Part shown: piece after piece, positions 10,952 through 40,045 of the stretch
Layout of the letters: each line of letters starts with the position of its first letter
Position numbering within the stretch: position 1 is the stretch's first letter
Virus record (IMG/VR): IMGVR_UViG_3300035665_000004
Location: 32,001 to 96,000 of that record
From: a virus
Strand: one strand, 5' to 3'
DNA: 64,000 nucleotides
Position numbers and translations under genes: made by a program
Notes under the pieces: generated by a model
Database searches by the model: none
What the model was told of the DNA's origin: nothing
The model's input: the letters and a program-made list of their open reading frames with translations, nothing else

Positions 10952-11752
10952 TTGAGTGAATTAGAGAAACTGATAAATGAATTAACCGAAGAAGATATTG
11001 AATACTTAGAAAAAACAGTATTTACTGAAGATGGAGGTATAATCCCATTAAATGAATTAGATAAATTAATTTCATATGAGGCAATGATGCATTCACAAAA
11101 AGATGCAGTGCAATATGCCTTAAAAATTAATTTAAACTCGGTTTATGGTGTACAAATTATGCCACACTTTAAATTTGCCGATGAATATGGTTCTTTGGGT
11201 GCAAGTACAACACTTAGTGGCAGAATACTATCTAAATTTGGGTTGATTGAAACTATTGAACAATATTTTAACCAAGATAGAGAAATTAGATGGGAATTTC
11301 CACTTTCAAATGATATTACAGTAGCTGCAGATGATATTTCGTTTTTTAAAAATCCAGAAAATCAAATGCTAAGAACAGCAGTTATTTCAGATACAGATAG
11401 TGTCTCTGGTGATTCATTGGTAAAAACTGATAGATTTGGTGACATTTCTCTTACCGATTTAGAAGAAAAAGCTGATAGAATTGAAATTAAGAACAACAAA
11501 GAGTTTTATTTTTTTGATTCTCCACTAAACATAACAAATTATATAGATGGAAACCTGTTGTTTGATACTGTCGAATTTATATACGCTCATAACATAGAAA
11601 AAGATATGTATGAAATAGAATTAGAAGATGGTAAAATTATTCGTTGTACAAGTGATCATAGCATTATGATTTGTAATGATTGTGGTGAACCAATCATCGA
11701 AAAGAAACCAAATGAATTAACATCCGATGATTTTTGTATGATTGAAGATTAA
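10952..11752 (+). CDS. Family-B DNA polymerase middle fragment (motif B to motif C) fused to the N-terminal half of a split intein
   Basis: Motif B QYALKINLNSVYG and motif C half VISDTD, then SVSGDS (intein block A, 11399) and IRCTSDH (block B TxxH), then a stop. TTG start after GGAGG. Confidence 0.9.
   Translation: MSELEKLINELTEEDIEYLEKTVFTEDGGIIPLNELDKLISYEAMMHSQKDAVQYALKINLNSVYGVQIMPHFKFADEYGSLGASTTLSGRILSKFGLIETIEQYFNQDREIRWEFPLSNDITVAADDISFFKNPENQMLRTAVISDTDSVSGDSLVKTDRFGDISLTDLEEKADRIEIKNNKEFYFFDSPLNITNYIDGNLLFDTVEFIYAHNIEKDMYEIELEDGKIIRCTSDHSIMICNDCGEPIIEKKPNELTSDDFCMIED
11399..11749 (+). mobile_element. Split intein, N-half (117 aa, Ser1)
   Basis: Block A SVSGDSLV and block B TSDH; no blocks F/G before the stop; 28 acidic versus 11 basic residues. 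Confidence 0.88.
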
Positions 11753-11782
11753 AAAAAGCCTCACTAATCAGTGAGGCTTTTT
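11753..11782. terminator. Intrinsic terminator after the PolB-IntN gene
   Basis: aaaagcctcact-aatc-agtgaggctttt. Confidence 0.8.
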
Positions 11783-11798
11783 CACATTTACCAAAAAA

Positions 11799-13121
11799 TT
11801 ATAAAACTCTTTTTGCATTCCAATCTGAGCCGTCAGTAGCATAACCACCAACATTAACACCCTCAACAACAATTGTAGCGGTACCACTCATTAATAAAAA
11901 CTCGGTTACATATGGAACAACATCAATATCGTTAAGAATAATATATTTGAATTGAATAAAATAACCTGATAAATCACCACCTGCAGAAATCCCTGGTAAT
12001 GTTTTTGCGTACGCACATGGCAACCAATCACTCCACACAGCACCATAATTTGCAGATACTTTAACTTGGACACTTACTTTCGAGTAATTGTTTGTTTTCC
12101 ATGTAGTAATCAATGGATGTGAAACATTAAAACTTCCTAAATCGAATACATCGGAAACTCTATCACCAAATGGTCTTATTGTTCTAATAAGTGAATTTGC
12201 ATCAAATGCAGCATAACCAAAAGTTTCTTGACCATGCAATCTTTCATTGTCAGTTTGTTGATCTTCTTCTGCATAAATTTTGACTAATTCTTTAGTCCAT
12301 GCACCTGCACCACGTGCCCAATAACCATCGGCACCATTCATTGACTGTCCTTTAACAACGATGTCTGGACGATTACTGAAACCAGATTTGAAATTAATGA
12401 TATTTTCTTTTTTGTTTTCTACCCCTGCATTAGTACCAGTATTAACAATACCTACCTCCCCTCTAACATCAGTTAAATGTCCTTTGCCAGACATTGGTTC
12501 GAAAGCAATCCAGGCAACAGTTTCATATGCTGATGCTTTTTTAGTTTCTGCAAATTCCTGTGCAATTTCAAACCCATCAGTAGTTACTTTTTGTACCATT
12601 GTAGTTGCGAATGTTTCATTTTTATAGGTATTTAAAGTGTGTAAAACTACTGGTGTTTGTGCGAATAATTTTACAAATTTTATATAATCGCCAGAAAAAG
12701 TTTCCATACCACCACGTCTACTATTTGCCGTGTTATGTAACCCAGCTTCAATTCGATAACCACCTAAAGTAATGTGTGACCCTGCTTCTATGACAATATA
12801 TGAAACTGTTTCAGTGCCATGTTTGCCATCACTCGGTTCTTCCATAAATAATGTACATTGTGTAGGAGTTACATCTTTAACTCTTACGTCGACAGATGAA
12901 TCTAAATTTCTAGTAACAATGTATGCAACCACAACCGGATTGTGATATTCTTTTTTAAATTTTAATATGGTTTGTGCAGACGCATCAATAGAACCAGTCA
13001 AATCGACTCTTCCAGTTTCACCCCTAACATCTTCTGTTAATGCGAGACCTAACCCAGTAACATTAGTACCAGTATGATGACCACTTCTTAACGCACTCTT
13101 AATTGTTGTAATATGTTCCAT
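11799..13121 (-). CDS. Putative virion protein with three H-type-lectin-like repeats
   Basis: Three repeats ending ETVSYIVIEAG / ETVAWIAFE / ETFGYAAFD; late-type motif upstream. Confidence 0.55.
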   Translation of the reverse strand: MEHITTIKSALRSGHHTGTNVTGLGLALTEDVRGETGRVDLTGSIDASAQTILKFKKEYHNPVVVAYIVTRNLDSSVDVRVKDVTPTQCTLFMEEPSDGKHGTETVSYIVIEAGSHITLGGYRIEAGLHNTANSRRGGMETFSGDYIKFVKLFAQTPVVLHTLNTYKNETFATTMVQKVTTDGFEIAQEFAETKKASAYETVAWIAFEPMSGKGHLTDVRGEVGIVNTGTNAGVENKKENIINFKSGFSNRPDIVVKGQSMNGADGYWARGAGAWTKELVKIYAEEDQQTDNERLHGQETFGYAAFDANSLIRTIRPFGDRVSDVFDLGSFNVSHPLITTWKTNNYSKVSVQVKVSANYGAVWSDWLPCAYAKTLPGISAGGDLSGYFIQFKYIILNDIDVVPYVTEFLLMSGTATIVVEGVNVGGYATDGSDWNAKRVL

Positions 13122-13159
13122 AAATATTTCTCCAGGATTTTTTTAATGAGTATTTCTCT

Positions 13160-13167
13160 TATTTATC
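13160..13167 (-). promoter_or_regulatory. Putative late promoter (GATAAATA)
   Basis: 39 nt upstream of 13121. Confidence 0.45.
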
Positions 13168-13263
13168 TTTTATTGTAAAATTTAGTTTTATCATATTTAT
13201 GCAAATTTTAAAGATTTATATTATAATATCATATGACATTTTAAAACAATCGCAAGGATTTGT

Positions 13264-13983
13264 ATGATATGCAACTGTGGAAAAAACTATGAAACAGAAA
13301 AAAAGTTTATCAACCACCAACGAACATGTAAATATGTAGAGTTAGATTTAAAAAAGGTATTGACTTTTGGGTATATGTTGGATGAAGTAGATAGACATTT
13401 ATTTCACGTTCCGTTAAGCACAATAAAAAAATATTCTAAAGATAATAATGTAAATATTGAAAATGCAAAAAAAGAGTTAAAACATGTTATTATTACACAT
13501 TATAAAAAATCGTTGTGGGATATTTTATTGGTTTGGGAACATGAACTACTCGTTAGTGAATATCGACAATTTGCGAAATGGGTATGGAAAACATATAAAG
13601 ATATTTCCCTTATTTCGTTAAGAAATATATTAAGTAATAAAAAAATAATTTATAAGTATCATTTAGAAAGTACCCCATCTACCATAAAAAAAAGAATTAA
13701 CGACAGTTTAATTTATATACATGAAATCGGAGAATTTCATAATGATTTTGAATTTGTAGATGTTCTTTTTTCTGGTAAAGTATCAATTTTCTATGTATTG
13801 TTTAACGATTGGTTAGCAACTCAGTGGTATGGTAGATTAGACAGTGATTTACAAAACGGTTTACTCGAAAATGTAAATTTGGCGAGTAAGATTATATTGG
13901 ATAGACTAAAACCCGATGAATTTGATATGCTACAAAAGTTAGCATGTTCGAATACACCAGTTATCCATGCGATAGATTTTTAA
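13264..13983 (+). CDS. Hypothetical protein with an N-terminal Zn-finger-like motif
   Basis: CNCGK...HQRTC at the N-terminus. Confidence 0.6.
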   Translation: MICNCGKNYETEKKFINHQRTCKYVELDLKKVLTFGYMLDEVDRHLFHVPLSTIKKYSKDNNVNIENAKKELKHVIITHYKKSLWDILLVWEHELLVSEYRQFAKWVWKTYKDISLISLRNILSNKKIIYKYHLESTPSTIKKRINDSLIYIHEIGEFHNDFEFVDVLFSGKVSIFYVLFNDWLATQWYGRLDSDLQNGLLENVNLASKIILDRLKPDEFDMLQKLACSNTPVIHAIDF

Positions 13984-13999
13984 TTTAAGGAACACAAAT

Positions 14000-14503
14000 A
14001 TGGGTATGTTTGACACATTTTTAGATAATAACGCAACAGTTATATGTCCCGCATGTGGGGAAAAACACAACATGCAAAAAGGAGTTCAGTCCAAACAATT
14101 TCAGAATATACTTGACTATTACTATGTTGGTGATATGGTTGATGATACTGAAAATATTTCAGTGATCGAAGATTGGGATTGGTGTCATGTTTGTAACGAA
14201 CAAATAACATTATTCTTTTCCTTCAAAAATAGCATTTTTTTAGGTATTTTCCAAACAGAAATTTCAGCAAAATTTGCAAATGATAATGCAAACATATATG
14301 AATTATATAAAAAATTATTTAATCAGAAGACAGAAATATCAACTCGGGTTAAAACATTAGAATCAAAAATCAGAGAAACGATATATGTTCATGGTGAAAT
14401 ACAAAAAAAGAAAAATTTTCAAATGTTTCATTTTAATCATAACAGATTTATTGATTTTGATATAATAAAAACCTTGAAAAATATTTTAATTGATGATGAG
14501 TAA
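14000..14503 (+). CDS. Hypothetical Zn-ribbon protein
   Basis: CPACG and CHVC pairs; AAGGA RBS. Confidence 0.6.
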   Translation: MGMFDTFLDNNATVICPACGEKHNMQKGVQSKQFQNILDYYYVGDMVDDTENISVIEDWDWCHVCNEQITLFFSFKNSIFLGIFQTEISAKFANDNANIYELYKKLFNQKTEISTRVKTLESKIRETIYVHGEIQKKKNFQMFHFNHNRFIDFDIIKTLKNILIDDE

Positions 14504-14530
14504 CCACCATCAATTTTTTCTGTGTTCCAT

Positions 14531-15658
14531 TCAATACATCTTTTTCAATCCTGTAGATTTCAATTGAATTTTCAATTTCATATTTGAAAAATCAGAGACA
14601 AATCCGGACATAATCCTATCATACGTTTCCAAAATTCCATTTTTAAGTATAGATTCGGAAACATCTTTGATATTAGTTCCAAACTTTGGTAACGATACAA
14701 ACCAATTTGATTGTTTTTCTTTAAATATGATTTTACCCATTTCACCACCCTTTAAATCTTTATCAAATTTAGTTATTGTATCGTTATCCAAAACAAAAAC
14801 TAATTTTTTATTTTGGAAATTGAAATGTTTCAAAATCTCCAACTGTTCAGTTGTTATATTTTTTGAAAGAACAGCCATACCATTTAAATGTATAGCATCA
14901 TTGATGGATTCGGTTACAAATATCTGTTTTACATCTTCAGTTTTAAATAATTTATCCAATCCATAGATTATTGTCCCTCTATTGTTGAAATTTTCATTAG
15001 ATGGTGGATATAAATATTTATTTTTAGTAGGAAATAAAGCTCTTGCTGCCCAGCTTACTAATTTATCATCAAAATAAATTGGAAAAATTAACCGATTATT
15101 ATATTCACCAACCATACAAATATATAAATCTGTGGTTTTGTAGATTTCACTCAACCCACGCTCTTTTAAATAAGCCTTAACCTTACTTTTATTATCTTTA
15201 AATCTTTTGCGATACGCAGGCGAAACTTTTGATGAATGTAAATCATATTTTATCGATACATCCGGTAATTCCACTTCTTTATAATTTATCAATTCAAAAT
15301 TATCAGAACCCACCTCGGATTTAATATCCTCTTGGTCTTTTAAACCGGAATTTAGAAATATTTTCTCTTTTTTTATTTCGAGTAAAATACTACCCATTTT
15401 TTTCCAAGCAGATTTTGATATGAAGGTTGCGAAGGTAGTAAGGTTATTACCATTAAAACGATGTTTTTTACTACAATTAAAACATTGCCAACCAATCTCA
15501 TCATTTGAAAATAAAAAATGTGATCTAGGATTTCTTGATTTACCATCATTACAATATGGACAACCAGTTAAATTTTGCCTCCAACCTTTCGATGACAATG
15601 TTCCCAATCGAAAATATCTGTCGACAAACGCTTCTTGTTTAAGGCCGTAATTTATCAC
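14531..15658 (-). CDS. DNA primase, T4 gp61-like
   Basis: N-terminal CPYC...CFNC Zn finger, RLIFPI, and TOPRIM motifs FVTES and LDND. Confidence 0.85.
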   Translation of the reverse strand: MINYGLKQEAFVDRYFRLGTLSSKGWRQNLTGCPYCNDGKSRNPRSHFLFSNDEIGWQCFNCSKKHRFNGNNLTTFATFISKSAWKKMGSILLEIKKEKIFLNSGLKDQEDIKSEVGSDNFELINYKEVELPDVSIKYDLHSSKVSPAYRKRFKDNKSKVKAYLKERGLSEIYKTTDLYICMVGEYNNRLIFPIYFDDKLVSWAARALFPTKNKYLYPPSNENFNNRGTIIYGLDKLFKTEDVKQIFVTESINDAIHLNGMAVLSKNITTEQLEILKHFNFQNKKLVFVLDNDTITKFDKDLKGGEMGKIIFKEKQSNWFVSLPKFGTNIKDVSESILKNGILETYDRIMSGFVSDFSNMKLKIQLKSTGLKKMY

Positions 15659-16004
15659 TTATTTCACCAAACCAATTACTAAGTTTTGTTCTAATGTTTT
15701 TTTTGTACATTTCTATTTTTGAATCTTTGATGAATTTATTTTTAATAACTTTGGATGCAGTTATATCAAATTTTATTTTTTCACCATTTATTTCATTTTC
15801 AAAAGTAATTATGCCAGTTTTAAATTGCCACCCACTGATTGAATATTTGTAAGTATTAATATAAAACCATCCAAACCTATTTAACGTGCCAGTTTCTTTT
15901 TTAAAATTTTCATGTGCAAATACATTGTTTGAGTCTATGCTCCAGGTTTTTAAACTGGCTATCAGTTTATCAAGATTAATAATATCATTTTTATCTCTTA
16001 ACAT
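15639..16004 (-). CDS. Hypothetical protein
   Basis: 121-aa ORF in the operon with the primase. Confidence 0.55.
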   Translation of the reverse strand: MLRDKNDIINLDKLIASLKTWSIDSNNVFAHENFKKETGTLNRFGWFYINTYKYSISGWQFKTGIITFENEINGEKIKFDITASKVIKNKFIKDSKIEMYKKNIRTKLSNWFGEISDKLRP

Positions 16005-16317
16005 TACTACCCCATATTTTAATTAGTTTTGAATTGGAATCACTTCCCATAATAGTTAAAGTAAGTTCAGGTCTATCATTTTCAAAATTAGATATTAACC
16101 TATTTTTCGCAAAATTATTTAATATATCGACAGAAACAGTTATTCTATCATCATTAATAATACTATAAAAATGATCATCCGTTAAACTTGACATGAGAAT
16201 TATAGCCAAAACCTTACCATCAAACTCATTATAAAATTTTGATATATTTTTAATTTCCAAACATTTACTGTGTGGTAAAGCATCTTTCTGTATTTCTAAC
16301 ACAAAAATAGTAGTCAT
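15991..16317 (-). CDS. Hypothetical protein
   Basis: 108-aa ORF, overlapping operon arrangement. Confidence 0.55.
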   Translation of the reverse strand: MTTIFVLEIQKDALPHSKCLEIKNISKFYNEFDGKVLAIILMSSLTDDHFYSIINDDRITVSVDILNNFAKNRLISNFENDRPELTLTIMGSDSNSKLIKIWGSNVKR

Positions 16318-16319
16318 GA

Positions 16320-16772
16320 TTAATACATTATGTTATGTTGAATTTTATGAATATCGATAATACTTTTTACTTTCCAATCAAACGAGGATAATTCCTTCTC
16401 TTTAGACTCTAATGATTTAATTGTAACATTAATTTTGTCTAATAATTTTTTATTATCAACATATTCGGGAAATTTTTTTATTTCTCTTTCATAGTCTTTA
16501 TGGGTTTTTAACAATTCGGGGAATCCATCATATTCACTTGCAACATTATGGATTTCAATGGCATACCAATTATCAAATGCTATTTCTAAATCAGCATGTG
16601 ATAATCGAAGTTTAAATATAATTTTCGTTAATTTGGCGTGGTGATAATTAGCTAGAGCAATTTTTTCTTGTATTTCCTCTAGTTTGACTTTTGGATCGAG
16701 TGAAAAATCTAAAATTTCTGTCAACTCGTATATTTGACTATCCGTTAAGATTTCTTTAAGAAAGGTTAGCAT
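16320..16772 (-). CDS. UvsY-like recombination mediator (tentative)
   Basis: All-helical 150-aa protein ending DWKVKSIIDIHK, reminiscent of the UvsY C-terminus. Confidence 0.45.
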   Translation of the reverse strand: MLTFLKEILTDSQIYELTEILDFSLDPKVKLEEIQEKIALANYHHAKLTKIIFKLRLSHADLEIAFDNWYAIEIHNVASEYDGFPELLKTHKDYEREIKKFPEYVDNKKLLDKINVTIKSLESKEKELSSFDWKVKSIIDIHKIQHNIMY

Positions 16773-16828
16773 TAAAATTCCTCATATTTAATTAAGATAT
16801 GAGGAATTTTACAATTTTTTTGCCGATT

Positions 16829-17164
16829 TTATTCTTGTGAGAAAAATGTTATTTGCAAATCATCCAACTCAAAACCATAAGCGGTAGATGCTTTTTCGAG
16901 ATCAAATAACGAATAATCGCTGCTCGACTTAATTCTTCTAATTTCTACCAACGCATTGTTTTTTAAATAAGTTTCAAAAGCACCAGCAAGGAACGAAACC
17001 TCAATACCATATTTTTCAGCAACGCCCGTAATTATATCAATATTTAAAAGTGCTGGTTTGTATTTCGTATTAATTTCAGTAACAGCATCTTGAAATTGTT
17101 TGGCTTCTTTGTGTAATTCAAGTGTTGTAGATACAACAGTTTCTTTTTTTCTAAACATAAACAT
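16829..17164 (-). CDS. Hypothetical protein
   Basis: 111-aa ORF followed by a hairpin at ~16774-16810. Confidence 0.55.
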   Translation of the reverse strand: MFMFRKKETVVSTTLELHKEAKQFQDAVTEINTKYKPALLNIDIITGVAEKYGIEVSFLAGAFETYLKNNALVEIRRIKSSSDYSLFDLEKASTAYGFELDDLQITFFSQE

Positions 17165-17283
17165 AGTTAAAACTCCTGAGTTTTTAATTATTAAGCATTT
17201 TTATTTATTTATTCGTTTTTTACATTTGTTTAAAAATTTTGTAAAATATACTATATACAGTAACAATCTTTAAAAGGAACATT

Positions 17284-18645
17284 ATGAGCCTCAATTCTTC
17301 TATTTTTGAAAAACCGAGTTGTAAATTTAAATTTTTGCAAAGAGAAGGTTTCAATACACCGAACTACTATGAGCTGTTAACATCAGATGATGTTTTGAGA
17401 GTATATCGGGATTATATGATTTCAAAAAGAGACACCCTGAGCTATGATATTGATGGATTGGTTCAAGAAATCGATGATTTTGATGCACAAAAAGAATTGG
17501 GATTTCAACCAAATGGGTTAATCCCAAAATTTGCAACATCAATAAAATTTGATAGTATGGGTGCAGTTACTAAATTAATAGATGTTCGGTGGACTGTAGG
17601 TATGACGGGCAAAATAATCCCTACTGGAATTTTTGAACCTATTGATGTTATGGGTGTTACTATTACCAAAGCATCACTTCACAATTTTGAATTATTGGAT
17701 ACTCTTATAAACAAAGATGGTTTGCGTATCGGTTCAAAAGTTTTAATTTGTAGAAAAGGTGATGTAATTCCTCAGGTTGTATCCGTAATACCTGACAAAG
17801 AAAAAAAACCTTATATCCAAATACCAGCCGAATGTCCCGAATGTGGAGAAACACTAAATAGATTTTCTGTTAATTTAGTTTGTGATAATATTGCTTGTTC
17901 TGCAAAAACAAAAGGCATTTTCACAAATATGTTTAGTACGTTAGATATTAAAGGGTTAAGTGATAAATTTGTTGAAAAAGCCACTGAAGTTTATGACATT
18001 ACAACCATCGATGAATTAATGAATTTAACAGTGGATGAAATTGAAAAATTGCCAGGGTTCGCAAAAAAATCAGCACAGAAGGCATATGATACTATCCACT
18101 CAGTTACGGATGTAACACCAGAACAATTCTTTGCATTATTAAATATACCAAATCAAGGAGTTCGAGTATTCGAAAATTTATTTTCGCAATTCCCAATGGA
18201 AAAATTACTAGATAACTCCTTCAAACCAGAAGATATTTTAGACACTAAAGGTATAGCTGAAAAATCTGCAAACGCTATTCACACTGGAATACAATCAAAC
18301 CTTGATAGATTGCGTGAAAACGCAAAATGGTTCACCATAATTAAAAAAGATGTGGTGACATCACCGGAAAATCACAAAGCCGCGATGATGGGTAAAAGTT
18401 TTTGTATTACTGGAACATTAAACTTAGGGACTAGAAAAGATTATGAAACCTTAATTTTATCTTCGGGTGGTAAAATATCAGCAGTTACAAAAAATTTAGA
18501 TTTCTTAGTTACCAATGATGCTGATACATCATCATCAAAAATGAAAAAAGCGTTAGAAATAAATTCAACCCTACACAATAACGGAGTTGATAAAAAAATC
18601 GTGATAATTGATGAAAATCAATTACGTAATATTTTAGAAATCTAG
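17284..18645 (+). CDS. ligA: NAD+-dependent DNA ligase, C-terminal part only (no domain Ia or KxDG)
   Basis: Has motif IV YDIDGLV, motif V-like SIKF, OB fold WTVGMTG/KASLHN, motif VI KGDVIPQV, a C4 Zn finger, HhH and BRCT. Starts at its own AAGGA RBS. Confidence 0.85.
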   Translation: MSLNSSIFEKPSCKFKFLQREGFNTPNYYELLTSDDVLRVYRDYMISKRDTLSYDIDGLVQEIDDFDAQKELGFQPNGLIPKFATSIKFDSMGAVTKLIDVRWTVGMTGKIIPTGIFEPIDVMGVTITKASLHNFELLDTLINKDGLRIGSKVLICRKGDVIPQVVSVIPDKEKKPYIQIPAECPECGETLNRFSVNLVCDNIACSAKTKGIFTNMFSTLDIKGLSDKFVEKATEVYDITTIDELMNLTVDEIEKLPGFAKKSAQKAYDTIHSVTDVTPEQFFALLNIPNQGVRVFENLFSQFPMEKLLDNSFKPEDILDTKGIAEKSANAIHTGIQSNLDRLRENAKWFTIIKKDVVTSPENHKAAMMGKSFCITGTLNLGTRKDYETLILSSGGKISAVTKNLDFLVTNDADTSSSKMKKALEINSTLHNNGVDKKIVIIDENQLRNILEI

Positions 18646-18671
18646 TTTAAATACCTTTATGGAGTTAAAAA

Positions 18672-19163
18672 ATGGAAAATCCCGAAGTATATGAAGCAGA
18701 ATTAAATTTGGATAATTTTAGTGTTACTGAGGAAAAATCAGATGATCAACAAATGACTGATTTACAAATTTATGGAATTAACTCGGCAACTGTTAGATTA
18801 TTAAGTAAATTGCGAAAATATATTATATTAATCCAACTACAAATAGATTTAGTTTCAAAACCTCAAAGTATTCAACCAGTTATGAGAGAAATCTATCAAT
18901 ATTCTGAAACTCAAATGATCATGGATATTAGAGAAGAATTGGATATGTATCGCGTGTATGCTTCAGATAGAATAGTAATCAAAAATGTAATGCATGTACG
19001 TGAAAAATTTGAACAGGCAATAAGTTATGTTACCGAAAACATGCAAACTGTAGAATCAGTAATCGATAAAAGTTATATCGAAATATTAGATACTTTCATA
19101 GATTCACTACATCAATTAACAGATAAATTAACAAAAAAATCCATTTTATCCGACCAGTATTAA
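18672..19163 (+). CDS. Hypothetical protein
   Basis: 163-aa ORF with GGAG RBS. Confidence 0.6.
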   Translation: MENPEVYEAELNLDNFSVTEEKSDDQQMTDLQIYGINSATVRLLSKLRKYIILIQLQIDLVSKPQSIQPVMREIYQYSETQMIMDIREELDMYRVYASDRIVIKNVMHVREKFEQAISYVTENMQTVESVIDKSYIEILDTFIDSLHQLTDKLTKKSILSDQY

Positions 19164-19223
19164 TTAAATTTATTTGGTATAATAAATTTTTAATTTTAAA
19201 AAAACAATCACAGGATTATTAAC

Positions 19224-20189
19224 ATGAGTAATTTGCGAAATAGATTATGGGTAGCAAAATATGCACCTACAAACTTTGATGATACTATCATGCCTATAGA
19301 AATAAAAGAAAAAATGCAAAATTTTGTAAAAACCCAGGATATTCCTAATCTATTACTTGCAGGACCGCCCGGAACTGGCAAAACCACATCTGGACATGCA
19401 TTATTACAACAATTGAAAGTTGATAAAGGTGATATTATGTTTATCAACGCTTCAGATATTAACTCAGTTGATGCAGTTCGAAATATTATAACTCCATTTG
19501 CAATGAGCATGAGTATTAATAATGAATTACCAATTAGATTTATTTTTTTAGATGAAGCGGATCATCTTAGTCCACAAGCTCAAGCTGCTTTAAGAAATTT
19601 AATTGAAGCAACATATAATAGTGCGAGATTTATTTTAACTGCAAATTATCCTAAAAAAATTATTCCGGCATTACACAGTAGAGTACAAACTTTTGTTTTA
19701 GAAAAACCTGCACTCGATTCAATTTTAGAAAGAGTGTTAAATATTCTCGAAAGTGAGGAAGTAGAAATAGAATCGGAAGATGATTTGGTTTCATTAATTC
19801 GAAATAATAGCACTGATATTAGAAAATTAATTCAACTGTTACAACAAAATACAATCATCAATGGAAAATCTAAGATTTTAAGAGTTAAAACTAAGCAAGA
19901 TGCGTGTAGTGAAACATTTGTAGAATATATTAACTTATTTAAAAAGAATGATGGTAAGGCATTACGAAATTTAGTATTCACGGCATTCACAGATAGTGAT
20001 TGTGACGAATTTTGGTCGTTATTCATTGATGATATTATCAAAAATAGCTCAACATATGAGAATATTGGAGCTGGTATAGATAATACCATTTATCATCTGA
20101 ATGAGGGACAAAAAAACCACGAAGTTGTTGCAAACAAACAATTAAATGTGTTAGGATTTACATTGGCGGCATTAAATGTTGGTGCATAA
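19224..20189 (+). CDS. Clamp-loader AAA+ subunit (RFC / T4 gp44-like)
   Basis: WVAKYAP, GPPGTGKTT, INASD, FLDEAD, AQAALRNLIE, FILTAN and SR motifs. Confidence 0.92.
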   Translation: MSNLRNRLWVAKYAPTNFDDTIMPIEIKEKMQNFVKTQDIPNLLLAGPPGTGKTTSGHALLQQLKVDKGDIMFINASDINSVDAVRNIITPFAMSMSINNELPIRFIFLDEADHLSPQAQAALRNLIEATYNSARFILTANYPKKIIPALHSRVQTFVLEKPALDSILERVLNILESEEVEIESEDDLVSLIRNNSTDIRKLIQLLQQNTIINGKSKILRVKTKQDACSETFVEYINLFKKNDGKALRNLVFTAFTDSDCDEFWSLFIDDIIKNSSTYENIGAGIDNTIYHLNEGQKNHEVVANKQLNVLGFTLAALNVGA

Positions 20190-20405
20190 ATGAATACCGA
20201 TTTGGTAAATACCACTTTAAATTATATACAACTTTTCTATGGTAATGGTCTTTTATTTTTTGTTTTTTCCGCAATAATAGTTATTTTTATTCGCAGATTT
20301 TTTTCTGTGAAGAAAGAAACAATAATAGTTTTAAATACTAAACGGATCGCACAGGAATATAAAAAAAAATTAGATGAAGAGTCAAAAATTAATAATAAAC
20401 CATGA
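20190..20405 (+). CDS. Small membrane protein
   Basis: One TM segment; starts immediately after the clamp-loader stop. Confidence 0.5.
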   Translation: MNTDLVNTTLNYIQLFYGNGLLFFVFSAIIVIFIRRFFSVKKETIIVLNTKRIAQEYKKKLDEESKINNKP

Positions 20406-20464
20406 TTTATCGATTCACAACTTAGAATTTTGACAATTTTAATAACCCAACAGGATTACAAACT

Positions 20465-21076
20465 ATGAAATATATCAGTATCGATTTAGAAACTACGGGA
20501 CTAGATGAAAATAACTGTCAAATTATTGAATTTGGTGCGGTTTTAGAAGATACCAATAATATTCTACCAATGGATGAACTGCCGGTGTATCACGCATATG
20601 TTACACACCCAGACGGTAATTTATTTGGCAACGTATTTGCGTTGAATCTCAACGCAGGAATTATTGAAAAACTGAAAAATCAAAAAGAATTACAAGATTT
20701 ACACAACTATGTTCCCATTGAAGATTTAGCATTTAGTTTTATGTTTTGGCTTTATGAACAGGGGTTTCAACTAAACACAAAAAATGAGGGATTAGAAACC
20801 GAATATAAAAGTGTTGAATCTATTACCGTTGCTGGAAAAAATTTTTCAGGATTTGATAAGTTGTTTCTGAATAAGGTTCCAAACTGGAACAAATACATCC
20901 GTATGAGAACCAGAGTTTTAGATCCTGCAATTTTATTCATCGATTGGAAAAATGATAATGCACCACCATCACTCGATGAATGTAAAATTAAAGCCGGAAT
21001 TCAAGGGGTTGTGACTCATCTTGCAGTTGATGATGCGAAAGATGTTATCAAATTATTGAGAACTAAATATGTCTGA
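20465..21076 (+). CDS. DEDDh 3'-5' exonuclease (DnaQ-like)
   Basis: IDLETTG, NFSGFD and HLAVDDA motifs. Confidence 0.85.
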   Translation: MKYISIDLETTGLDENNCQIIEFGAVLEDTNNILPMDELPVYHAYVTHPDGNLFGNVFALNLNAGIIEKLKNQKELQDLHNYVPIEDLAFSFMFWLYEQGFQLNTKNEGLETEYKSVESITVAGKNFSGFDKLFLNKVPNWNKYIRMRTRVLDPAILFIDWKNDNAPPSLDECKIKAGIQGVVTHLAVDDAKDVIKLLRTKYV

Positions 21077-21329
21077 AATTCCAACAGAAAACAATAACTA
21101 CTTTACATTTGCAACTCATAATTATTCTATTCTAACTGAAAAATTTTTACAGGAATTATATGAGTCTTATCCAGAAAAAATAGTTGTTTTGCTCAATGAT
21201 GAGTCTGGCAAAATTAGTAAATTGTCGTTGAACAATTATATAATGACATATTCTGTAACACCCGATAGTTTTGACCCATTATTGTTTAATAAATACATTT
21301 CGACAATCCGAGAAATATTCCGGAACTAA
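21069..21329 (+). CDS. Hypothetical protein, YPEK paralogue 1
   Basis: Shares YPEK...LxxY...SFxP..F with the next two ORFs. Confidence 0.6.
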   Translation: MSEIPTENNNYFTFATHNYSILTEKFLQELYESYPEKIVVLLNDESGKISKLSLNNYIMTYSVTPDSFDPLLFNKYISTIREIFRN

Positions 21330-21334
21330 AAAGA

Positions 21335-21547
21335 ATGAAACCCACAACTAGTTTAGATTATTTAGATGTTTTTATTTCAGATTTGAGTTTTCAATATCCA
21401 GAAAAATTACTACAATTAAATGAGTATATAGAGTACAAAGTTTCGTTAAATTATTTCATAATTAACAATTCAATTGATATTCATACTTTCAACCCAACAG
21501 TATTTAGAAAATATGTTCAAAGTTTACATAGAGATGGAAGAAAGTAA
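21335..21547 (+). CDS. Hypothetical protein, YPEK paralogue 2
   Basis: QYPEKL...LNYF...TFNPTVFRKY. Confidence 0.6.
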   Translation: MKPTTSLDYLDVFISDLSFQYPEKLLQLNEYIEYKVSLNYFIINNSIDIHTFNPTVFRKYVQSLHRDGRK

Positions 21548-21549
21548 CT

Positions 21550-21891
21550 ATGATAAGTAGTAGTAGTAATATTTGTCTAAATATAAATCAAAAAACTATT
21601 TTTGATGATGTTTTTGATAATGTGTTTATTCAAAACTTAGAAAATGTGTATCCAGAAAAGTTGGTATATCTTTTCGGATTAGTATTTACTCTAAAACATT
21701 TAGAGTATTTTTTAGAAAAAAACTCACTAACAATTGATAGTTTCAACCCAATTGATTTTGAAACATTTTTAAAAACTGGAATACCACTACCACCAACAGT
21801 TGGTGATGTTCGAATTGATTCTTACAAAAACATAGTATATGTCTATGCTAAGAATGATAAATCTAAAAATTATGAATGGGTTAAAATTTAA
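21550..21891 (+). CDS. Hypothetical protein, YPEK paralogue 3
   Basis: VYPEKL...LEYF...SFNPIDFETF. Confidence 0.6.
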   Translation: MISSSSNICLNINQKTIFDDVFDNVFIQNLENVYPEKLVYLFGLVFTLKHLEYFLEKNSLTIDSFNPIDFETFLKTGIPLPPTVGDVRIDSYKNIVYVYAKNDKSKNYEWVKI

Positions 21892-21923
21892 CGGTTGTGG
21901 ATTAAACTGAATCCACAACCGTT
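21890..21923. terminator. Bidirectional terminator
   Basis: aacggttgtggatt...aatccacaaccgtt between convergent operons. Confidence 0.75.
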
Positions 21924-21931
21924 AAAATAAA

Positions 21932-22660: not shown

Positions 22661-22663
22661 GAT

Positions 22664-26393: not shown

Positions 26394-26708
26394 ATGATTG
26401 AATTCGATAATGGTCGAGTAACTGAAGTATTACGTGCATGTTTAATTATCGTTCAGCAGCAAGAAATGATTGATGAAGTAATTCCAGATATTGCTGATGA
26501 ATTTGGTGTTAGTAAAGGTTCAGTTAAGAAAATTTGTATGGCATACGCAAAAGATACATTGCAGAAAACACAGGAAAAATTAGAAGATGAACGGTCAATG
26601 CTCGCAAACATTGAATTATTGATAGAAGCGGTTGAAAACATATCACCTTCAGATATTAAAGAAGTATATGAAGAATCAGATTTAAAAAAACCAGATGTTG
26701 AAGATTAG
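26394..26708 (+). CDS. T4 DsbA-like dsDNA-binding protein (tentative)
   Basis: IADEFGVSKGSVKKICMAYAKD parallels the DsbA/GapR helical motif. Confidence 0.45.
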   Translation: MIEFDNGRVTEVLRACLIIVQQQEMIDEVIPDIADEFGVSKGSVKKICMAYAKDTLQKTQEKLEDERSMLANIELLIEAVENISPSDIKEVYEESDLKKPDVED

Positions 26709-31662: not shown

Positions 31663-32859
31663 ATGAAAACTCCCGATAAAATAAATACGGATCGGTATGA
31701 AGTAAACAAACCATCAGAACTGTGTCAAGTAATATTCATCAAGAATTTTAAAAATGATTTTGAAATTTACAAAATTAGTCCTATGCAATTGGATCTAATA
31801 AATGGTATAATTTATAAGGTTCGGGAAATCATAATTAAGGAAAATTTAAACATCGATGATGAAATTCCATCTACATTATTCGACATAAAACTAAATGATT
31901 TTGCAAATATGTTTTCCGCTTATACTAATAACGACTATAAGGTTTTACTTGAAAAACTTATAGAATTGTCAGAAATGAAAATTATTATAAATGCCCTAGG
32001 TAAAAATAAAGATATTGATGAAACAATCATGACTAGGTTTATTCATGAGATACGACTATCAAAACATAAACATCAAAAAAACCAAAGAATTAGAGTTGCG
32101 ATTTCTAATATTATAATTAACAGGTTTATTAACGTAAAAAAATATTTTTCCAAAATGTTTTTTACAATCCAATTTTCGATGGTATCAAAATACTCAAAGT
32201 TATTATATGAATTATTGAAAGATTATGAAAATATTAAAAAAATAGAATTGACTGTAAATTCATTGCATGATTTACTAAATGTTGTTGAACCAAACCAACG
32301 CAAATGGACATTATTTAATCAAAATATTTTGAAAAAAGCTGTCAATGAAATCAATGAAAAAGCAGATATTAAAGTTTTTTACGAACCTATTAAAGAAAGA
32401 CCATCATCAACTGAAAGATTGCAGGTAACAAAAGTTAAATTTGTTATCGAGAAACAAACGGAGTCAAGACTACAATCACTAGGGTTAATTCATGAATCGA
32501 TAAAATCCAATAAGTTCTATAATAAGTCGAAAAATAAATTAGACAAATTATTGAAAACTGGGTACAAACTAATCGATGAAGAAAAATGGATTGAAACCGA
32601 CATCAAAAACAATGCTGTCCGATATGATGCTGAAATAAGAATTGATAACTGGTTGAAAAATACACCACAAGATGATAAAAATAACATATATGCAATGCTT
32701 GCAAAAACACTTGATGATTGTGACGAACAATTTATTTATATTGATGGATATTTAATTAGAGGAGTTTTTTCGAATGATTCATATACTAGAAACCCAATGG
32801 AAACTATTTCTGTAATGAATGAGTTGATCAACCAAATTTCTTCAAACTCAACCAATTAA
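31663..32859 (+). CDS. Plasmid-type replication initiator (Rep_3 / RepB family)
   Basis: SKYSKLLYELLKDY, LHDLLNV and NILKKAVNEINEKADIKVFYE winged-helix motifs; GAGG RBS; TGTATAAT at 31624. Confidence 0.88.
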   Translation: MKTPDKINTDRYEVNKPSELCQVIFIKNFKNDFEIYKISPMQLDLINGIIYKVREIIIKENLNIDDEIPSTLFDIKLNDFANMFSAYTNNDYKVLLEKLIELSEMKIIINALGKNKDIDETIMTRFIHEIRLSKHKHQKNQRIRVAISNIIINRFINVKKYFSKMFFTIQFSMVSKYSKLLYELLKDYENIKKIELTVNSLHDLLNVVEPNQRKWTLFNQNILKKAVNEINEKADIKVFYEPIKERPSSTERLQVTKVKFVIEKQTESRLQSLGLIHESIKSNKFYNKSKNKLDKLLKTGYKLIDEEKWIETDIKNNAVRYDAEIRIDNWLKNTPQDDKNNIYAMLAKTLDDCDEQFIYIDGYLIRGVFSNDSYTRNPMETISVMNELINQISSNSTN

Positions 32860-35666: not shown

Positions 35667-36746
35667 TCACGCAATGAAAGTTATTTTTATATACCCTTCA
35701 TAATCATTAAATGTGCCGATATTGGATATATTTGAACCATTAAATACGGTAGAATCATCAAACTTACCATCGCTAGTTGCAATGGAAGTGGCTGTATTAA
35801 TTATAAATGAACCGCCACCAATACCTGAAAGATAAGAACCACCCATACTTGTTTGACCACCTAAACCGCCAGAATAACCTCCACCTCCGCCACCAGAGTT
35901 ATTACCCGAATGTCCACCACCACCGCCACCAAAACCACCTTGTGCAGCATTAGTTGTCGAGTTTCCTCCGGTACAATAAAATGGTCCTGAAGCAGATGAA
36001 ACAGCCCCACCAACAAATGCTGCCCCGTGTGTGTATTGTTGAGCTGATGAATCAGTAGCCATTGCCGCAGAATTAGTATAACCTGGATAATCTTCACCAC
36101 TACCAAACCAACCACCTCCGCCACCACCATGATAACCTCGACCACCATAACTTAATGTTGGGTGTGTTCCAGATACCGATGGAGAATAATTGTATCCTGT
36201 AAACAATGGTTGTCTTCTAGTTTGACCATTTATATATTCTTGTGTAGTCATACTACTGTAAAATCCAGCACCACCACCAGCAACAATAATTGGTGTGTTT
36301 GTACCATAAAGACAAATAAATGAACCACCACCACCACCAGAATATGATGTTCCAGGTGCAATCGAACCTGTATCACCAGGTACTTGACCAACAACCATTT
36401 CTAACTTATCAGTTGTAGTAAATGGTATTCTTGCTCTAATTATTGCACCTTTACCATTAGTAGATGGCGTAGTATATTGGCCTCTTGCACCTGCGATTTC
36501 AATCTCATAAATTCCAGTTTTGGGAATTTGAAACACCTGATACCCCTGTGCTCTCCCTTGATAGAAATAATTGGTATTTGATGCCCATGTTTGACTACTA
36601 TATGTGGATTGTAATTGTGCTAATGTTGGACCGTGTCTACCAACTTTTCCACCAGGCGTAAATGTATGAGTCGTAAACCCAGTATATAATGTTGCTCCAC
36701 CACCTGAAGATGTATTACTTAAAAAAGATAAATTAATACCACTCAT
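35667..36746 (-). CDS. Glycine-rich-domain virion / fibre-associated protein
   Basis: GYQVFQIPKTGIYEIEIAGARG plus multiple GGGGG runs. Confidence 0.65.
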   Translation of the reverse strand: MSGINLSFLSNTSSGGGATLYTGFTTHTFTPGGKVGRHGPTLAQLQSTYSSQTWASNTNYFYQGRAQGYQVFQIPKTGIYEIEIAGARGQYTTPSTNGKGAIIRARIPFTTTDKLEMVVGQVPGDTGSIAPGTSYSGGGGGSFICLYGTNTPIIVAGGGAGFYSSMTTQEYINGQTRRQPLFTGYNYSPSVSGTHPTLSYGGRGYHGGGGGGWFGSGEDYPGYTNSAAMATDSSAQQYTHGAAFVGGAVSSASGPFYCTGGNSTTNAAQGGFGGGGGGHSGNNSGGGGGGYSGGLGGQTSMGGSYLSGIGGGSFIINTATSIATSDGKFDDSTVFNGSNISNIGTFNDYEGYIKITFIA

Positions 36747-37612
36747 GACACATTACCTGTAATTATACCAGTATTTGCATTATAAAAAAGAACAGTACAT
36801 AATCCGCGTGAAGCGAGTGTTAAAGATGTTTTTGTTGTATTTGAACCAGCAACATATGTTGTGATTGCAGAACAGGTAATTGTTAATGTGCTGGCAGTAT
36901 TATTAAATATTGTGATAATATCACCAGCAGCAAAAACATTTGCGGGTACTGTTATTGCCCCATTAGTTCCTAAACTTACAAATTTACCGATATCAGAGGT
37001 TGATAAAGTATATGATGATGTTTTATCTGTACCAGATAAAGGCATATTTCTATATCCAATATCTACTAAATCAATTTTACAATTCACTAAATTACCTGAA
37101 ACTGGCGTTCCAAGTGCAGGATTTGTTCCAAGTTTAGAATTAACAGTATTTGTCAATGACGTGATTGCAGCATTATTAGATGTTACATAACCTGCGAATG
37201 CATTATCATTAGTTGTATCAACTGAGTTAATCAAAGTAACAATTTCAGCAAATGAATCTTTATCAGCAGATGATGCTGATAAAATAGCATCAATTCTAGC
37301 TTTTTCACTTGCTAAGTTATTGGTTAATGTTGTATCCGCAGCTTGTCTAGCTAATACCTCATTAGTTAAATTAGTGGTTAATGTGTTATCAGCATTTGTT
37401 CTTGAAGTTGCTTCAGAAGCAAGATTATTAGTTAATGTTGTGATAGCTGTTTCTCTAGATGTAACCTCAGTATTAATCGCAGCTTGTCTAGCTGTTGCTT
37501 CATTAGAAATTGCAGCAGTTAAAGTAGTAACTGCTGCTTGTCTGGCTGTAGCTTCATTGGTAACTGCTGTAGAAACTACACTACCCATTTTTTTAAAAAT
37601 TGAATCAGGCAT
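36743..37612 (-). CDS. Short fibre-like protein with coiled-coil repeats
   Basis: NEATARQAA repeats; shares a 45-aa block with 4311..7601. Confidence 0.65.
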   Translation of the reverse strand: MPDSIFKKMGSVVSTAVTNEATARQAAVTTLTAAISNEATARQAAINTEVTSRETAITTLTNNLASEATSRTNADNTLTTNLTNEVLARQAADTTLTNNLASEKARIDAILSASSADKDSFAEIVTLINSVDTTNDNAFAGYVTSNNAAITSLTNTVNSKLGTNPALGTPVSGNLVNCKIDLVDIGYRNMPLSGTDKTSSYTLSTSDIGKFVSLGTNGAITVPANVFAAGDIITIFNNTASTLTITCSAITTYVAGSNTTKTSLTLASRGLCTVLFYNANTGIITGNVS

Positions 37613-37652
37613 TTTTTATCTCCTTTTTTGGTTTGAAAGTATAAGTTGATGT

Positions 37653-37660
37653 TATTTATT
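37653..37660 (-). promoter_or_regulatory. Putative late promoter (AATAAATA; a second copy GATAAATA at 37682-37689)
   Basis: 41 nt upstream of 37612. Confidence 0.4.
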
Positions 37661-37695
37661 TTTTACTAATAACACTAATTATATTTATCACTCTT

Positions 37696-37732
37696 GCCAC
37701 AAGACATCAACCTTTAGGTCGTGGATTCCTAA
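37696..37732. mobile_element. Second IS200/IS605-like end hairpin relic
   Basis: gccac...cctttaggtcgtggattcctaa: CTTTAG loop with an interrupted ccacgacc/ggt...gtgg stem. Confidence 0.35.
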
Positions 37733-37765
37733 CCAATTTTCAAAAATACAATATTTTCCCAATAA

Positions 37766-38809
37766 TTATTTTTTTGCCGGATTTTTAATCGGTTCAATAA
37801 TTTCTTTAGCATACCAACCTATTTGAAATTCTGTAGAATTTCTTTCTAATTGTTTAAGAGTGTTTTCACTACAATTCACAAAAATTGGGCAACCGTTATT
37901 TTTGTATGATTCAGTTAATTTACGTCTTGAGAGTTTATGTTTTTTGCAGAAATCATCAAAATTTCCATATGACGTACCAAACAAAGTACCATCCACACGG
38001 TAAACTGAAATCTTTTTAGAATTAGGGGAAACGTAAAAATCATAAGCATCAAACTCACGTTTGGTCACTACCTTATTTTTTCCATCTCTAATATCCAAAA
38101 CAGTTACTCTATCCTCAGATACATGTTTAAAAAATTCATTTTGTTCATATTCCATCTTAGAAACTAACTTGTATTTTTCAGCAATAACATCAAAAACTAA
38201 AACACACCCCTTATTTTGTCGAACATAATAATCGAATTCGTAAAATTCTTTAGTTGTTACCTGAACTGTGGTTCCATTTCTAATATCAATAACAGAAACT
38301 TTTCCAGTAGCCGCAGTAATATATTGATCCGACGAATTATATTCATTAACACTTATACTTTTGATAACGTTGTCTTTGGTATCAAAAACAGTAACGAACC
38401 CTTTTGTACAATGTTGGTAAAAATCAGTATTTTTTAATTCCTCTTTCACCACCAACTTTGTTAACCCAGTTCTCACATCAATAACTGGAACTAATCCTAC
38501 AGTAGTGAAACCATTACTAATTGATTTAACTTTGTTATAATATTCGGTGTTTCTTGAAACATCATACAATTCGTGTAATCTTATTTCTTCATTGAGTGCA
38601 TATTCTCTTGTTTCCCAAACTGATAATATTTCTTTTTTAAAATTTTCAATTCCACCAAATTTAATTGCATTCTTTAAAGGTGTAGAAGACCCCATATATT
38701 TCACATCTTTTTCTGGAGAAACTTTTGATGTTCTAACACCTATATAATATTTTTGGTTATCGATAGGGACAGTATTAATTATTTTGTAAACATAATGATA
38801 TTGTTTCAA
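37766..38809 (-). CDS. Free-standing GIY-YIG homing endonuclease (Seg-like)
   Basis: YVYKIIN...YYIGVR, YMGSS and EEIRL..YN motifs, then about six VxD(x)4-5VxxxE(F/Y) repeats. Confidence 0.85.
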   Translation of the reverse strand: MKQYHYVYKIINTVPIDNQKYYIGVRTSKVSPEKDVKYMGSSTPLKNAIKFGGIENFKKEILSVWETREYALNEEIRLHELYDVSRNTEYYNKVKSISNGFTTVGLVPVIDVRTGLTKLVVKEELKNTDFYQHCTKGFVTVFDTKDNVIKSISVNEYNSSDQYITAATGKVSVIDIRNGTTVQVTTKEFYEFDYYVRQNKGCVLVFDVIAEKYKLVSKMEYEQNEFFKHVSEDRVTVLDIRDGKNKVVTKREFDAYDFYVSPNSKKISVYRVDGTLFGTSYGNFDDFCKKHKLSRRKLTESYKNNGCPIFVNCSENTLKQLERNSTEFQIGWYAKEIIEPIKNPAKK

Positions 38810-38899
38810 ATTTTCTCCCTGTGCTAAAAATTATTAATTTCCTAACCATTATACAAACTATTGTATAATATAATATATTCTTATTAATTGGTAAAAAAT

Positions 38900-39019
38900 A
38901 TGTTGAAAAAAGTTAAAGTTAAATCGGTTAAAAAAATTGATTATTCTGGTAAAGTATATGATGTAGTTATGAAAAGTAACCCACATACATTTTTTGCAAA
39001 TAATATTTTGGTACATAAT
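38900..39019 (+). mobile_element. Split intein, C-half (40 aa)
   Basis: Blocks F/G end in His-Asn before Ser+1 (39020-39022); 8 Lys versus 2 Asp. Confidence 0.9.
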
Positions 39020-40045
39020 TCCTGTTATTTCAGAGTAATGGAGGCAGAAAACTTAGAACAGGCAGAAAAAATAAGTAGAGAGGTAGTTGACGCCTGTGAT
39101 AAAAAATCTATCCCATCAATAGTTACCAATATTTTTAATGGTAATGACATTATGCGTAGTGATTTTGAAGCAATTTCTCGATCAACACTGTCGTATGGTA
39201 AGAAAAAACAATACGCATTTCTTAAAGCCTGGGAGGATGGAGAAACCTTACCAACTCCAAAATTAAGCATCACTGGTTTATCAATTAAAAGAAGTGATTC
39301 ACCAAAACAGTTATCTACTGAAATGAAACCATTCTTTACCGAAATTATGAAAGGTTTAACAAAAGAACAGATAAAAATCGCAATGGATAAAATTGAAAAA
39401 GATTATGATGCTCTACCAACATATGAATTGGCAGCTAAACGTTCAGCGAATAACTTATCAAAATATTTAAGGGCATTTAACTATGAATTAGTTAAAAAGG
39501 ATAGACCATACAACATCGAAAAATTAGATGAGGCAGTTGAAAACGCTTGTGATGGGCGAGTATCCATCGATGATAAAATTTATGATGATTTCATGAGAAC
39601 AGGCAAAGGTGTTTATTCCATCGAAAATAATAAATTGGTTAAAGATATAAAAGGTGATTTAATCATAGAGGCAAAAGTTAAAATGGTTATTCCATTTCAT
39701 ATCAAAGCATCGATACTTTATAATTATTTGTTAGAATTATACGATTTAAATGATTTCAATCCAATTTTAGATGGTGAAAAAATAAAATTATTTTATATTC
39801 AACCACAAAAATTTAATATAAAATACACGGATCTAGATGGAAACAAATATGATATGATACAAACTTTTGATTGTATTGCGTTCCCATCAAACTCAAAAAA
39901 AATACCAAATTTTATCAATACATTTACACCAGACAAAAAAAGAATGTTGGATACTTATTTCTTTGGTAAAATGGAAACAATTTTTGATGTTATCGATTTT
40001 AATAAAGAAAAATTAGAAAATATATCAATGGATTTATTGTTTTGA
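38900..40045 (+). CDS. C-terminal half of the split intein fused to the family-B DNA polymerase C-terminal fragment (palm/thumb)
   Basis: A 40-aa IntC ending VYDV...FFANNILVHN is followed by SCYF; PolB motifs KKKQYA, ITGLSIKRSD and HIKASILYN follow. Confidence 0.9.
   Translation: MLKKVKVKSVKKIDYSGKVYDVVMKSNPHTFFANNILVHNSCYFRVMEAENLEQAEKISREVVDACDKKSIPSIVTNIFNGNDIMRSDFEAISRSTLSYGKKKQYAFLKAWEDGETLPTPKLSITGLSIKRSDSPKQLSTEMKPFFTEIMKGLTKEQIKIAMDKIEKDYDALPTYELAAKRSANNLSKYLRAFNYELVKKDRPYNIEKLDEAVENACDGRVSIDDKIYDDFMRTGKGVYSIENNKLVKDIKGDLIIEAKVKMVIPFHIKASILYNYLLELYDLNDFNPILDGEKIKLFYIQPQKFNIKYTDLDGNKYDMIQTFDCIAFPSNSKKIPNFINTFTPDKKRMLDTYFFGKMETIFDVIDFNKEKLENISMDLLF

Follow-up and report, generated by a model that had tools for sequence, protein, structure and literature searches.

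We analysed a 64,000-nucleotide stretch (the window; bases 32001-96000) of a 121,946-bp viral contig from IMG/VR (record IMGVR_UViG_3300035665_000004, labelled G000 here), in which two distant genes encode the two halves of a split intein embedded in a family B DNA polymerase (PolB). We are confident, short of certainty, that this is a real split intein with unlinked halves, that trans-splicing rebuilds motif C of an at least tripartite PolB, and that the arrangement derives from a fractured gene. The source is a T4-like jumbo phage of lake water that is AT-rich and has not been cultured. The GC content of the window is ~30%, and T4-like replication genes, among them those for RNase H, a clamp loader, primase and type IA topoisomerase, are present. 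Near-identical DNA is found in lake-water and freshwater metagenome runs of many studies, none of the listed runs being from RNA. G000 has an estimated completeness of 48% (CheckV), and the two related IMG/VR phage contigs used for comparison, G001 (289,880 bp, 87% complete) and G002 (172,404 bp, 61% complete), are likewise incomplete; related contigs reach sizes of 347 and 496 kb. Single-protein scans of the viral contig set gave no match, and the genome contigs gave no relative.

The two genes, referred to as gene 1 and gene 2, comprise the following features, with IntN and IntC denoting the N- and C-terminal halves of the intein.

10952-11398 (+): gene 1, N-extein, middle fragment of a T4-type PolB (149 aa); fingers with motif B (KINLNSVYG) and palm motif C up to ISDTD
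11399-11752 (+): gene 1, IntN of a class 1 split intein, including the stop codon (residues 150-266, 117 aa)
11753-11782 (+): intrinsic terminator hairpin right after the gene 1 stop (13-bp stem, 4-nt loop, A-run before, T-run after)
38900-39019 (+): gene 2, IntC (40 aa from the ATG at 38900); block F VYDVV...H, block G ILVHN
39020-40045 (+): gene 2, C-extein, remaining palm and thumb of PolB (341 aa plus stop), starting at Ser+1 with SCYFRVME

The open reading frame (ORF) of gene 1 spans 10937-11752 (+), and its product is probably 266 aa long, because a GGAGGT box sits 7 nt before the likely TTG start at 10952. A first-pass annotation made from the letters alone had described VISDTD running into SVSGDS (Ser1), a 117-aa acidic IntN with its own stop and terminator, and a 40-aa basic IntC leading into SCYF, all of which we recover. 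The net charge is -17 for IntN (28 D+E against 11 K+R) and +6 for IntC. IntN further contains block B (CTSDH), a histidine at the NX position (...IYAHN...) and four non-catalytic cysteines. The hairpin after gene 1 has a folding free energy of -18.2 kcal/mol (z -7.3), which none of 200 shuffles equalled, and it could work in both directions because an A-run precedes and a T-run follows it; a consensus scanner did not call a terminator after gene 1. On the polymerase side, the gene 1 extein matches phrog_262 at positions 499-564, and gene 2 matches the same family at positions 597-754 (E 3.5e-32; overall span 597-851). The C-extein carries GKKKQYAF, a KKRY-type motif, and ends in the tail ...MDLLF. 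The score to Pfam DNA_pol_B is 16.8 bits, below the cut-off of 23.

Among cultured phages, tblastn returned matches in the Pseudomonas jumbo phage PA5oct and its kin, Tenacibaculum phage PTm1 and Salicola phage SCTP-2, together with T4-like Aeromonas salmonicida phages annotated as encoding an 'intein-containing split DNA polymerase precursor'. All compared phages have an N-extein ending in DTD, Ser as the first intein residue and S-x-Y at the start of the C-extein. For one of these inteins, Aes123 PolB1 (AesN 120 aa, AesC 39 aa), trans-splicing has been proven biochemically and is very fast, and the structure has been solved (PMC11923092). The Aes123 system resembles the one described here in its tripartite polymerase, its DTD/S insertion site (IDTD/SVVGDT and HN/SVYL, the slash marking the junction), its Ser1 and Ser+1, its block B, F and G motifs and the lengths of its halves (120/39 aa against 117/40 aa), and the gene 1 extein, whose polymerase motifs are invariant across 21 homologues, aligns with Aes123 gp43B1. 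PDB entry 9hth, which we take to be the Aes123 intein structure, is among the sequence matches of IntN.

The same site is used in PA5oct, its close relative MIJ3 and PTm1 (YGDTD/SVDGST and HN/SCYF), which, like the phage studied here, are group 2 T4-like jumbo phages. PolB16 OarG, from a sheep gut metagenome, shares the polymerase family, the SGDTD/S context, Ser1 and Ser+1 and the NX histidine, but is split after 15 residues (15/168 aa; PMC10189870), whereas the break here lies at the canonical endonuclease-loop position (117/40 aa). The window's intein is not a pol-c allele: it is inserted after DTD, two residues downstream of the pol-c site YGD/TDS used by the Neq Pol (Nanoarchaeum equitans PolB), archaeal PolI and Mimivirus inteins (PMC549080), in agreement with what the first-pass annotation had proposed. 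That annotation had also suggested a new orthogonal pair. Its assignment of Ser1 and Ser+1 at DTD/S was right, but the site is not new, being that of the allele found in Aes123, PolB16 OarG, PA5oct/MIJ3 and PTm1. Identity to Aes123 is ~30% for IntN and 49% for IntC, and the charge polarity is opposite: IntN of Aes123 and PTm1 is +8 with an acidic IntC. On account of this distance and polarity, the window's family is a plausible candidate for a pair orthogonal to Aes123. PA5oct and the IMG/VR phage G004 share the window's polarity of acidic IntN and basic IntC.

Several lines of evidence indicate that the intein is intact. The Pfam Intein_splicing domain (PF14890) is divided between the two genes, which hold complementary halves of it: residues 201-268 of gene 1 match profile positions 37-93, and residues 9-44 of gene 2 match positions 121-155. 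In a six-frame search, IntN scored 36.4 bits to PF14890. We aligned 21 gene-1-like and 25 gene-2-like metagenomic members that are 45-81% identical to the window's proteins. S150 (Ser1), H213 (NX) and T233 and H236 (both block B) are invariant in the gene 1 homologues; D21 (block F) and S41 (Ser+1) are invariant in the gene 2 alignment, with H39 and N40 present in 24/24 intein-bearing homologues. Mean identity is 57% for IntN versus 74% for its extein, and such faster drift around fixed splicing residues is the pattern that would be expected of a working intein selected for splicing only. Charge complementarity also extends across the family, with an IntN of -11 to -18 in 19/21 members and an IntC of +4 to +8 in 22/24. 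Clustered at 90% identity, gene-2-like proteins form ~50 clusters (381-404 aa) and gene-1-like proteins ~70 (mostly 264-280 aa); since they keep the same lengths throughout, the broken state is old and maintained.

A natural intein-less homologue (P0051, 488 aa) begins at the start of gene 1 and reads ...ASISDTDSCYFR... across the predicted junction. Its junction, ISDTDSCYFR, offers a natural picture of the spliced product and bears out the earlier suggestion that splicing would regenerate motif C. In structure prediction, IntN (with 5 extein residues) and IntC (with 6) are predicted to dock: three runs of the complex model gave a score of 0.84, whereas the best of 3 controls reached 0.00; at least 95% of contacts were shared between runs, and the partner pLDDT (predicted local distance difference test) was 80. 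A mark of 0.84 is reached by 58 of 80 solved complexes and by 2 of 110 mismatched pairs. Since many split-intein complexes are found among solved structures, the result is to be read as likeness and not as independent proof. Judged by its sequence features and its homology to a proven intein, the split intein is very probably active.

In another member of the gene 1 family, on a 22.9-kb lake contig (L075), the gene is interrupted inside motif B (KINLNSV / YGVQIM) at 1180-1440 by ~250 nt without an ORF. Many homologues of 66-78 aa and 196-216 aa point to the same interruption in many relatives; gene 1 of the window is uninterrupted. The L075 interruption contains AATCAGCAGC and GGTTCAGAGACTA, which are reminiscent of the Q and R elements found in group I introns; a search against Rfam had no match at gathering score in the window or in L075.

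What sets this intein apart is the layout of its genes. The first-pass annotation had placed the halves about 27 kb apart, and we measured 27,147 bp, with ~30 genes, between the gene 1 stop and the gene 2 start. Relative to G001, the intervening region is organised as follows.

11799-37612 (both strands): intervening block of ~30 genes; three G000-specific insertions interrupt its colinearity with G001 5258-24120
11799-13121: insertion 1, gene for an H-type-lectin protein, directly after gene 1
31663-32859 (+): insertion 2, Rep_3 plasmid-type initiator; the nearest G001 homologue (34% identity) is located elsewhere
35667-38809 (-): insertion 3, three genes before gene 2

The block includes genes for primase, a truncated NAD ligase, the clamp loader, a DEDD exonuclease, dUTPase, a ClpP-like protease, GTP cyclohydrolase I, the Rep_3 initiator and type IA topoisomerase. 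The halves lie on one strand with a gap of 20.3 kb both in G001 (4449-5240 and 25524-26630) and in G002 (20156-20947 and 41222-42328). Compared protein by protein, the window is colinear with G001 from 4.3 to 60 kb (G001 1.2-52 kb), and the three insertions make up its additional 7 kb. Because G001 and G002 share the layout although their PolB pieces are only 63-75% identical, the unlinked arrangement is ancestral and not an assembly error. Logan contigs of two other lake runs cross the gene 2 start without a difference (38776-39070 and 38815-39099). Candidate joints that skip 35.5-38.6 or 35.5-40.2 kb had sides of 21 letters in single low-depth contigs and were not used.

In a fractured gene the halves are adjacent with only a homing endonuclease between them, an arrangement from which all three genomes depart. 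The order in Aes123 (GenBank JN377899) is gp43A, gp43B1-IntN, VSR endonuclease and IntC-gp43B2, all adjacent, and PTm1 has a three-piece polymerase of the same kind (gp43A, gp43B1, VSR endonuclease, gp43B2). PA5oct encodes its N-piece with IntN (803 aa), a Hef-like endonuclease and IntC with the C-piece; the split intein of MIJ3 has been described, with a Hef-like/HNH endonuclease between the halves (PMC6892783). In PA5oct, MIJ3 and PTm1 the halves are 1.7-2 kb apart around one endonuclease gene, and five further IMG/VR phages (G003-G007) also have adjacent halves. Replicative polymerases assembled from two distant genes by a natural split intein are otherwise represented by Neq Pol, likewise a Ser1 intein, and by cyanobacterial DnaE; however, both belong to cellular genomes, and the DnaE intein is of the Cys1 type and lies in a polymerase of family C. 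In the proposal of Dassa et al. 2009, the halves would in the end become uncoupled once the endonuclease is lost, and only these two systems are cited as examples (PMC2677866); a limited literature search, which is no proof of absence, found no phage case of genomically uncoupled split-intein halves. The intein type and the DTD/S site are therefore already known, and the unusual feature is the unlinked gene layout.

Both genes are preceded by a shared palindrome, and gene 2 is divergent from an endonuclease gene.

10897-10920: perfect palindrome ATTATACAA-N6-TTGTATAAT in the divergent intergenic region upstream of gene 1
38848-38869: second copy, ATTATACAA-N4-TTGTATAAT, upstream of gene 2
37766-38809 (-): free-standing gene for a GIY-YIG (SegE-like) homing endonuclease, divergent from gene 2 with 90 bp between them

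The palindrome consists of two back-to-back extended -10 boxes, and its perfect form occurs only at these two sites in the whole contig, with ~0.16 matches expected in shuffles. G001 has a copy with one mismatch upstream of its gene 2 (25443-25466). This sharing fits a co-regulation of the two halves. The endonuclease gene (PF19835, 26.5 bits against a cut-off of 25; phrog_314, E 5e-20), the only such gene close to the halves, occupies the spot expected for the endonuclease of a fractured gene; as G001 lacks it there, it is probably a later arrival and not the agent of the original break. Further along the window lie the C-part (48708-49406, -) and N-part (49750-50277, -) of Hef-like/HNH homing endonucleases (phrog_559, E 6e-50; phrog_3339), the family found between the PolB halves of PA5oct. 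The pair is probably a broken endonuclease gene; G001 has no such gene at that place and a full 726-aa copy elsewhere.

Several findings weigh against our interpretation. With each gene holding only half of the domain, the PF14890 scores of 33.6 bits (gene 1) and 20.6 bits (gene 2) stay below the 35.8-bit cut-off. The NX histidine H213, which aligns with the K-H of Aes123, is preceded by Ala or Ser. The exact 11-mer core of the palindrome, with 2 copies against 0.39 expected, is weakly improbable on its own, being reached in 9 of 100 shuffles, and the palindrome could simply represent two divergent extended -10 promoters. Finally, the exonuclease/motif A piece of the polymerase was not found in G000 (122 kb), G001 (290 kb) or G002 (172 kb), all incomplete, and a functional polymerase is to that extent not yet accounted for. 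This missing piece is the main reason why our confidence is not higher.

The best-surviving alternative is that the fragments associate but no longer splice, the intein serving as a non-covalent dimerisation module or persisting as an inactive relic. The published NX motif of Ser1 inteins has Arg or Lys before the His (PMC10189870), which is missing here; IntN has its four non-catalytic cysteines; and even the wild-type Aes123 intein splices only ~30% in vitro (PMC11923092). Mere docking, however, needs none of the catalytic residues, and every one of them, including the terminal Asn and Ser+1, is invariant in dozens of diverged sequences, so we regard loss of splicing as unlikely.

The earlier proposal that an active polymerase is formed by trans-splicing is supported, but the two genes alone do not suffice. 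Genes 1 and 2 amount to only the C-terminal 490 residues of PolB and lack exonuclease motifs I-III and motif A (DxxSLYPS). In gene 1, as in gp43B1, ~50 residues precede motif B, and every relative begins at this point as well, so these parts must come from a third gene. We searched with PF03104, PF00136, phrog_2062, phrog_262, the PTm1 and PA5oct pieces (tblastn), a motif A regular expression and our own hidden Markov model of seven phage N-terminal pieces with filters off; none of these yielded the piece in G000, G001 or G002. In 17 metagenome loci, the DNA up to 10 kb from gene 1 contained no N-terminal piece, and around the halves no gp43A equivalent is present in the 43 kb upstream or the 50 kb downstream. 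A single string, VMGVDVASMYPSS, resembles motif A; it lies in a 155-aa ORF (G001 239346-239810) without a PolB profile match and with a weak match to a phiKZ internal head protein, and is probably due to chance; a 663-aa ORF at 22664-24655, also considered as PolB, looks like a structural protein instead. A gp43A-like piece may lie in unassembled parts or be undetectable by divergence: the gene 1 extein is itself so divergent that a profile search of 1.84 billion representatives yielded 9 matches, all in its own clade and none to a full-length PolB.

Between the halves, a stand-alone DEDD exonuclease gene (20465-21076, +) matches phrog_192, 'DNA polymerase exonuclease subunit' (E 1e-11), and is possibly a separate proofreader. 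It is of the DnaQ-type 3'-5' kind (MKYISIDLETTG...), adjoins the clamp loader and is conserved in G001.

Somewhat less probable than a non-splicing intein is that the PolB fragments are decaying relics and that a host enzyme or a phage 'minimal split Pol III' alpha, as reported for group 2.2 jumbo phages (PMC7824862), replicates the genome. Besides the missing exonuclease/motif A piece and the presence of the Rep_3 initiator, this would accord with a 169-aa Pol III alpha-like ORF in G001 (142541-143047) that matches Pfam DNA_pol3_alpha positions 19-96 above cut-off, also present in G002 (156933-157163); the fragment fits the published type and was not found on the G000 contig. Decay is nevertheless at odds with two intact ORFs whose lengths are kept in ~50-70 clusters and with the invariance of motifs B and C, the KKRY-like motif and the C-terminal tail. 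The piece is missing from genomes that are incomplete, and the cultured phages Aes123 and PTm1 rely for their replication on this same tripartite set of genes. An uninterrupted PolB elsewhere, which the first-pass annotation had raised as a way in which the fragments could be relics, was not found in G000, G001 or G002 within their assembled parts, and neither was PolA.

That the distance between the halves arose in assembly, through a chimeric contig or a collapsed rearrangement, as the same annotation had also considered and as a metagenome assembly with 48% completeness might suggest, is very improbable given two independently assembled relatives with the same order, a 20.3-kb gap and gene-by-gene colinearity, a stop and terminator for gene 1, a start of its own for gene 2, and contigs of other runs that bridge that start.

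We therefore favour a working split intein with unlinked halves, for which we propose the following route. The family B replicative polymerase would be encoded in at least three unlinked genes. After translation, the opposite charges of IntN and IntC would help them to associate and fold into one HINT domain, and class 1 protein trans-splicing would proceed via oxyester intermediates, beginning with an attack of Ser1 on the peptide bond between DTD and Ser. The N-extein would then be transferred to Ser+1, after which cyclisation of the terminal Asn and an O-N shift would complete the reaction. The product would be a 490-residue chain with an intact motif C (...ISDTDSCYFR...), which would combine non-covalently with a separate gp43A-like subunit, carrying the exonuclease and motif A and encoded off this contig. 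As for its origin, the ancestor was most likely a fractured gene with the order N-half-IntN, homing endonuclease, IntC-C-half, as in Aes123, PTm1 and PA5oct, whose already independent halves would later have been moved apart by rearrangement, corresponding to step IV of the model of Dassa et al. 2009. A wider scheme, in which the replisome of this clade is generally built by unlinked split inteins, a private palindromic operator times the PolB halves, and the N-terminal module is too divergent or fragmented for profiles, is one we put forward tentatively and consider doubtful when taken as a whole. It draws on the orphan intein halves that PolB, topoisomerase II and the gp41-type helicase each have in G000 or G001.

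Further inteins occur in these phages. About 18 kb past the window end, the N-part of a topoisomerase II (gp39/GyrB-like; G000:C1:113873-115540, -) ends ...AFSEGD/CVKSDTLIHT...SENH... followed by a stop. This orphan Cys1 IntN of ~96 aa, which has no IntC in its vicinity and escaped the Pfam search, makes the gene the second unlinked split-intein gene in G000; G001 176790-178418 shows the same. G001 225480-226097 (L036) encodes an IntC (...CNGILTHN/SAAGDV...) fused to the C-end of an apparent gp41/DnaB-type helicase, with unrelated genes upstream. At G001 279367-280167 (L038), a terminase-like gene begins inside an intein (...GLISHN/CDEMAF...), which recalls atypically split TerL inteins. The clamp-loader ATPase of another relative (L074 3022-3777) enters an IntN right after the Walker B LDE (FVFLDE/CLDENEK...NSKHPF); the clamp loader of the window (19224-20189) has no intein. 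A PF14890 match at G001 252260-252532 falls in a paralog-family protein and looks false.

Two other observations concern neighbouring genes and the clade. The NAD-dependent DNA ligase gene of the window (17284-18645, +) enters the 253-position adenylation domain only at position 177, with no KxDG part and no IntC; the gene upstream lies on the opposite strand, G001 has the same truncated form (456 aa), and the 122-kb contig holds no second PF01653 match. In G001, 232-256 kb (L036-L037) is occupied by two large paralog families, comprising small ORFs with ...YPELWI-like tails and ORFs of 150-520 aa ending in ...LPxEVxDIFIF. The latter tail is similar to the ...MDLLF terminus of the PolB C piece and may thus represent a docking peptide common to both, perhaps one that binds the clamp.

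Catalytically cysteine-independent (Ser1/Ser+1) split inteins are rare and sought-after tools for protein engineering, with the caveat here of the non-catalytic cysteines in IntN. For phage biology, the system described here would exemplify in a virus the genomic uncoupling of intein halves that is predicted as the end point of gene fracturing, and related phages in which the halves are adjacent offer an evolutionary series for comparison. An essential polymerase kept in at least three unlinked genes throughout a clade would also raise the question of how the expression and stoichiometry of its pieces are coordinated.

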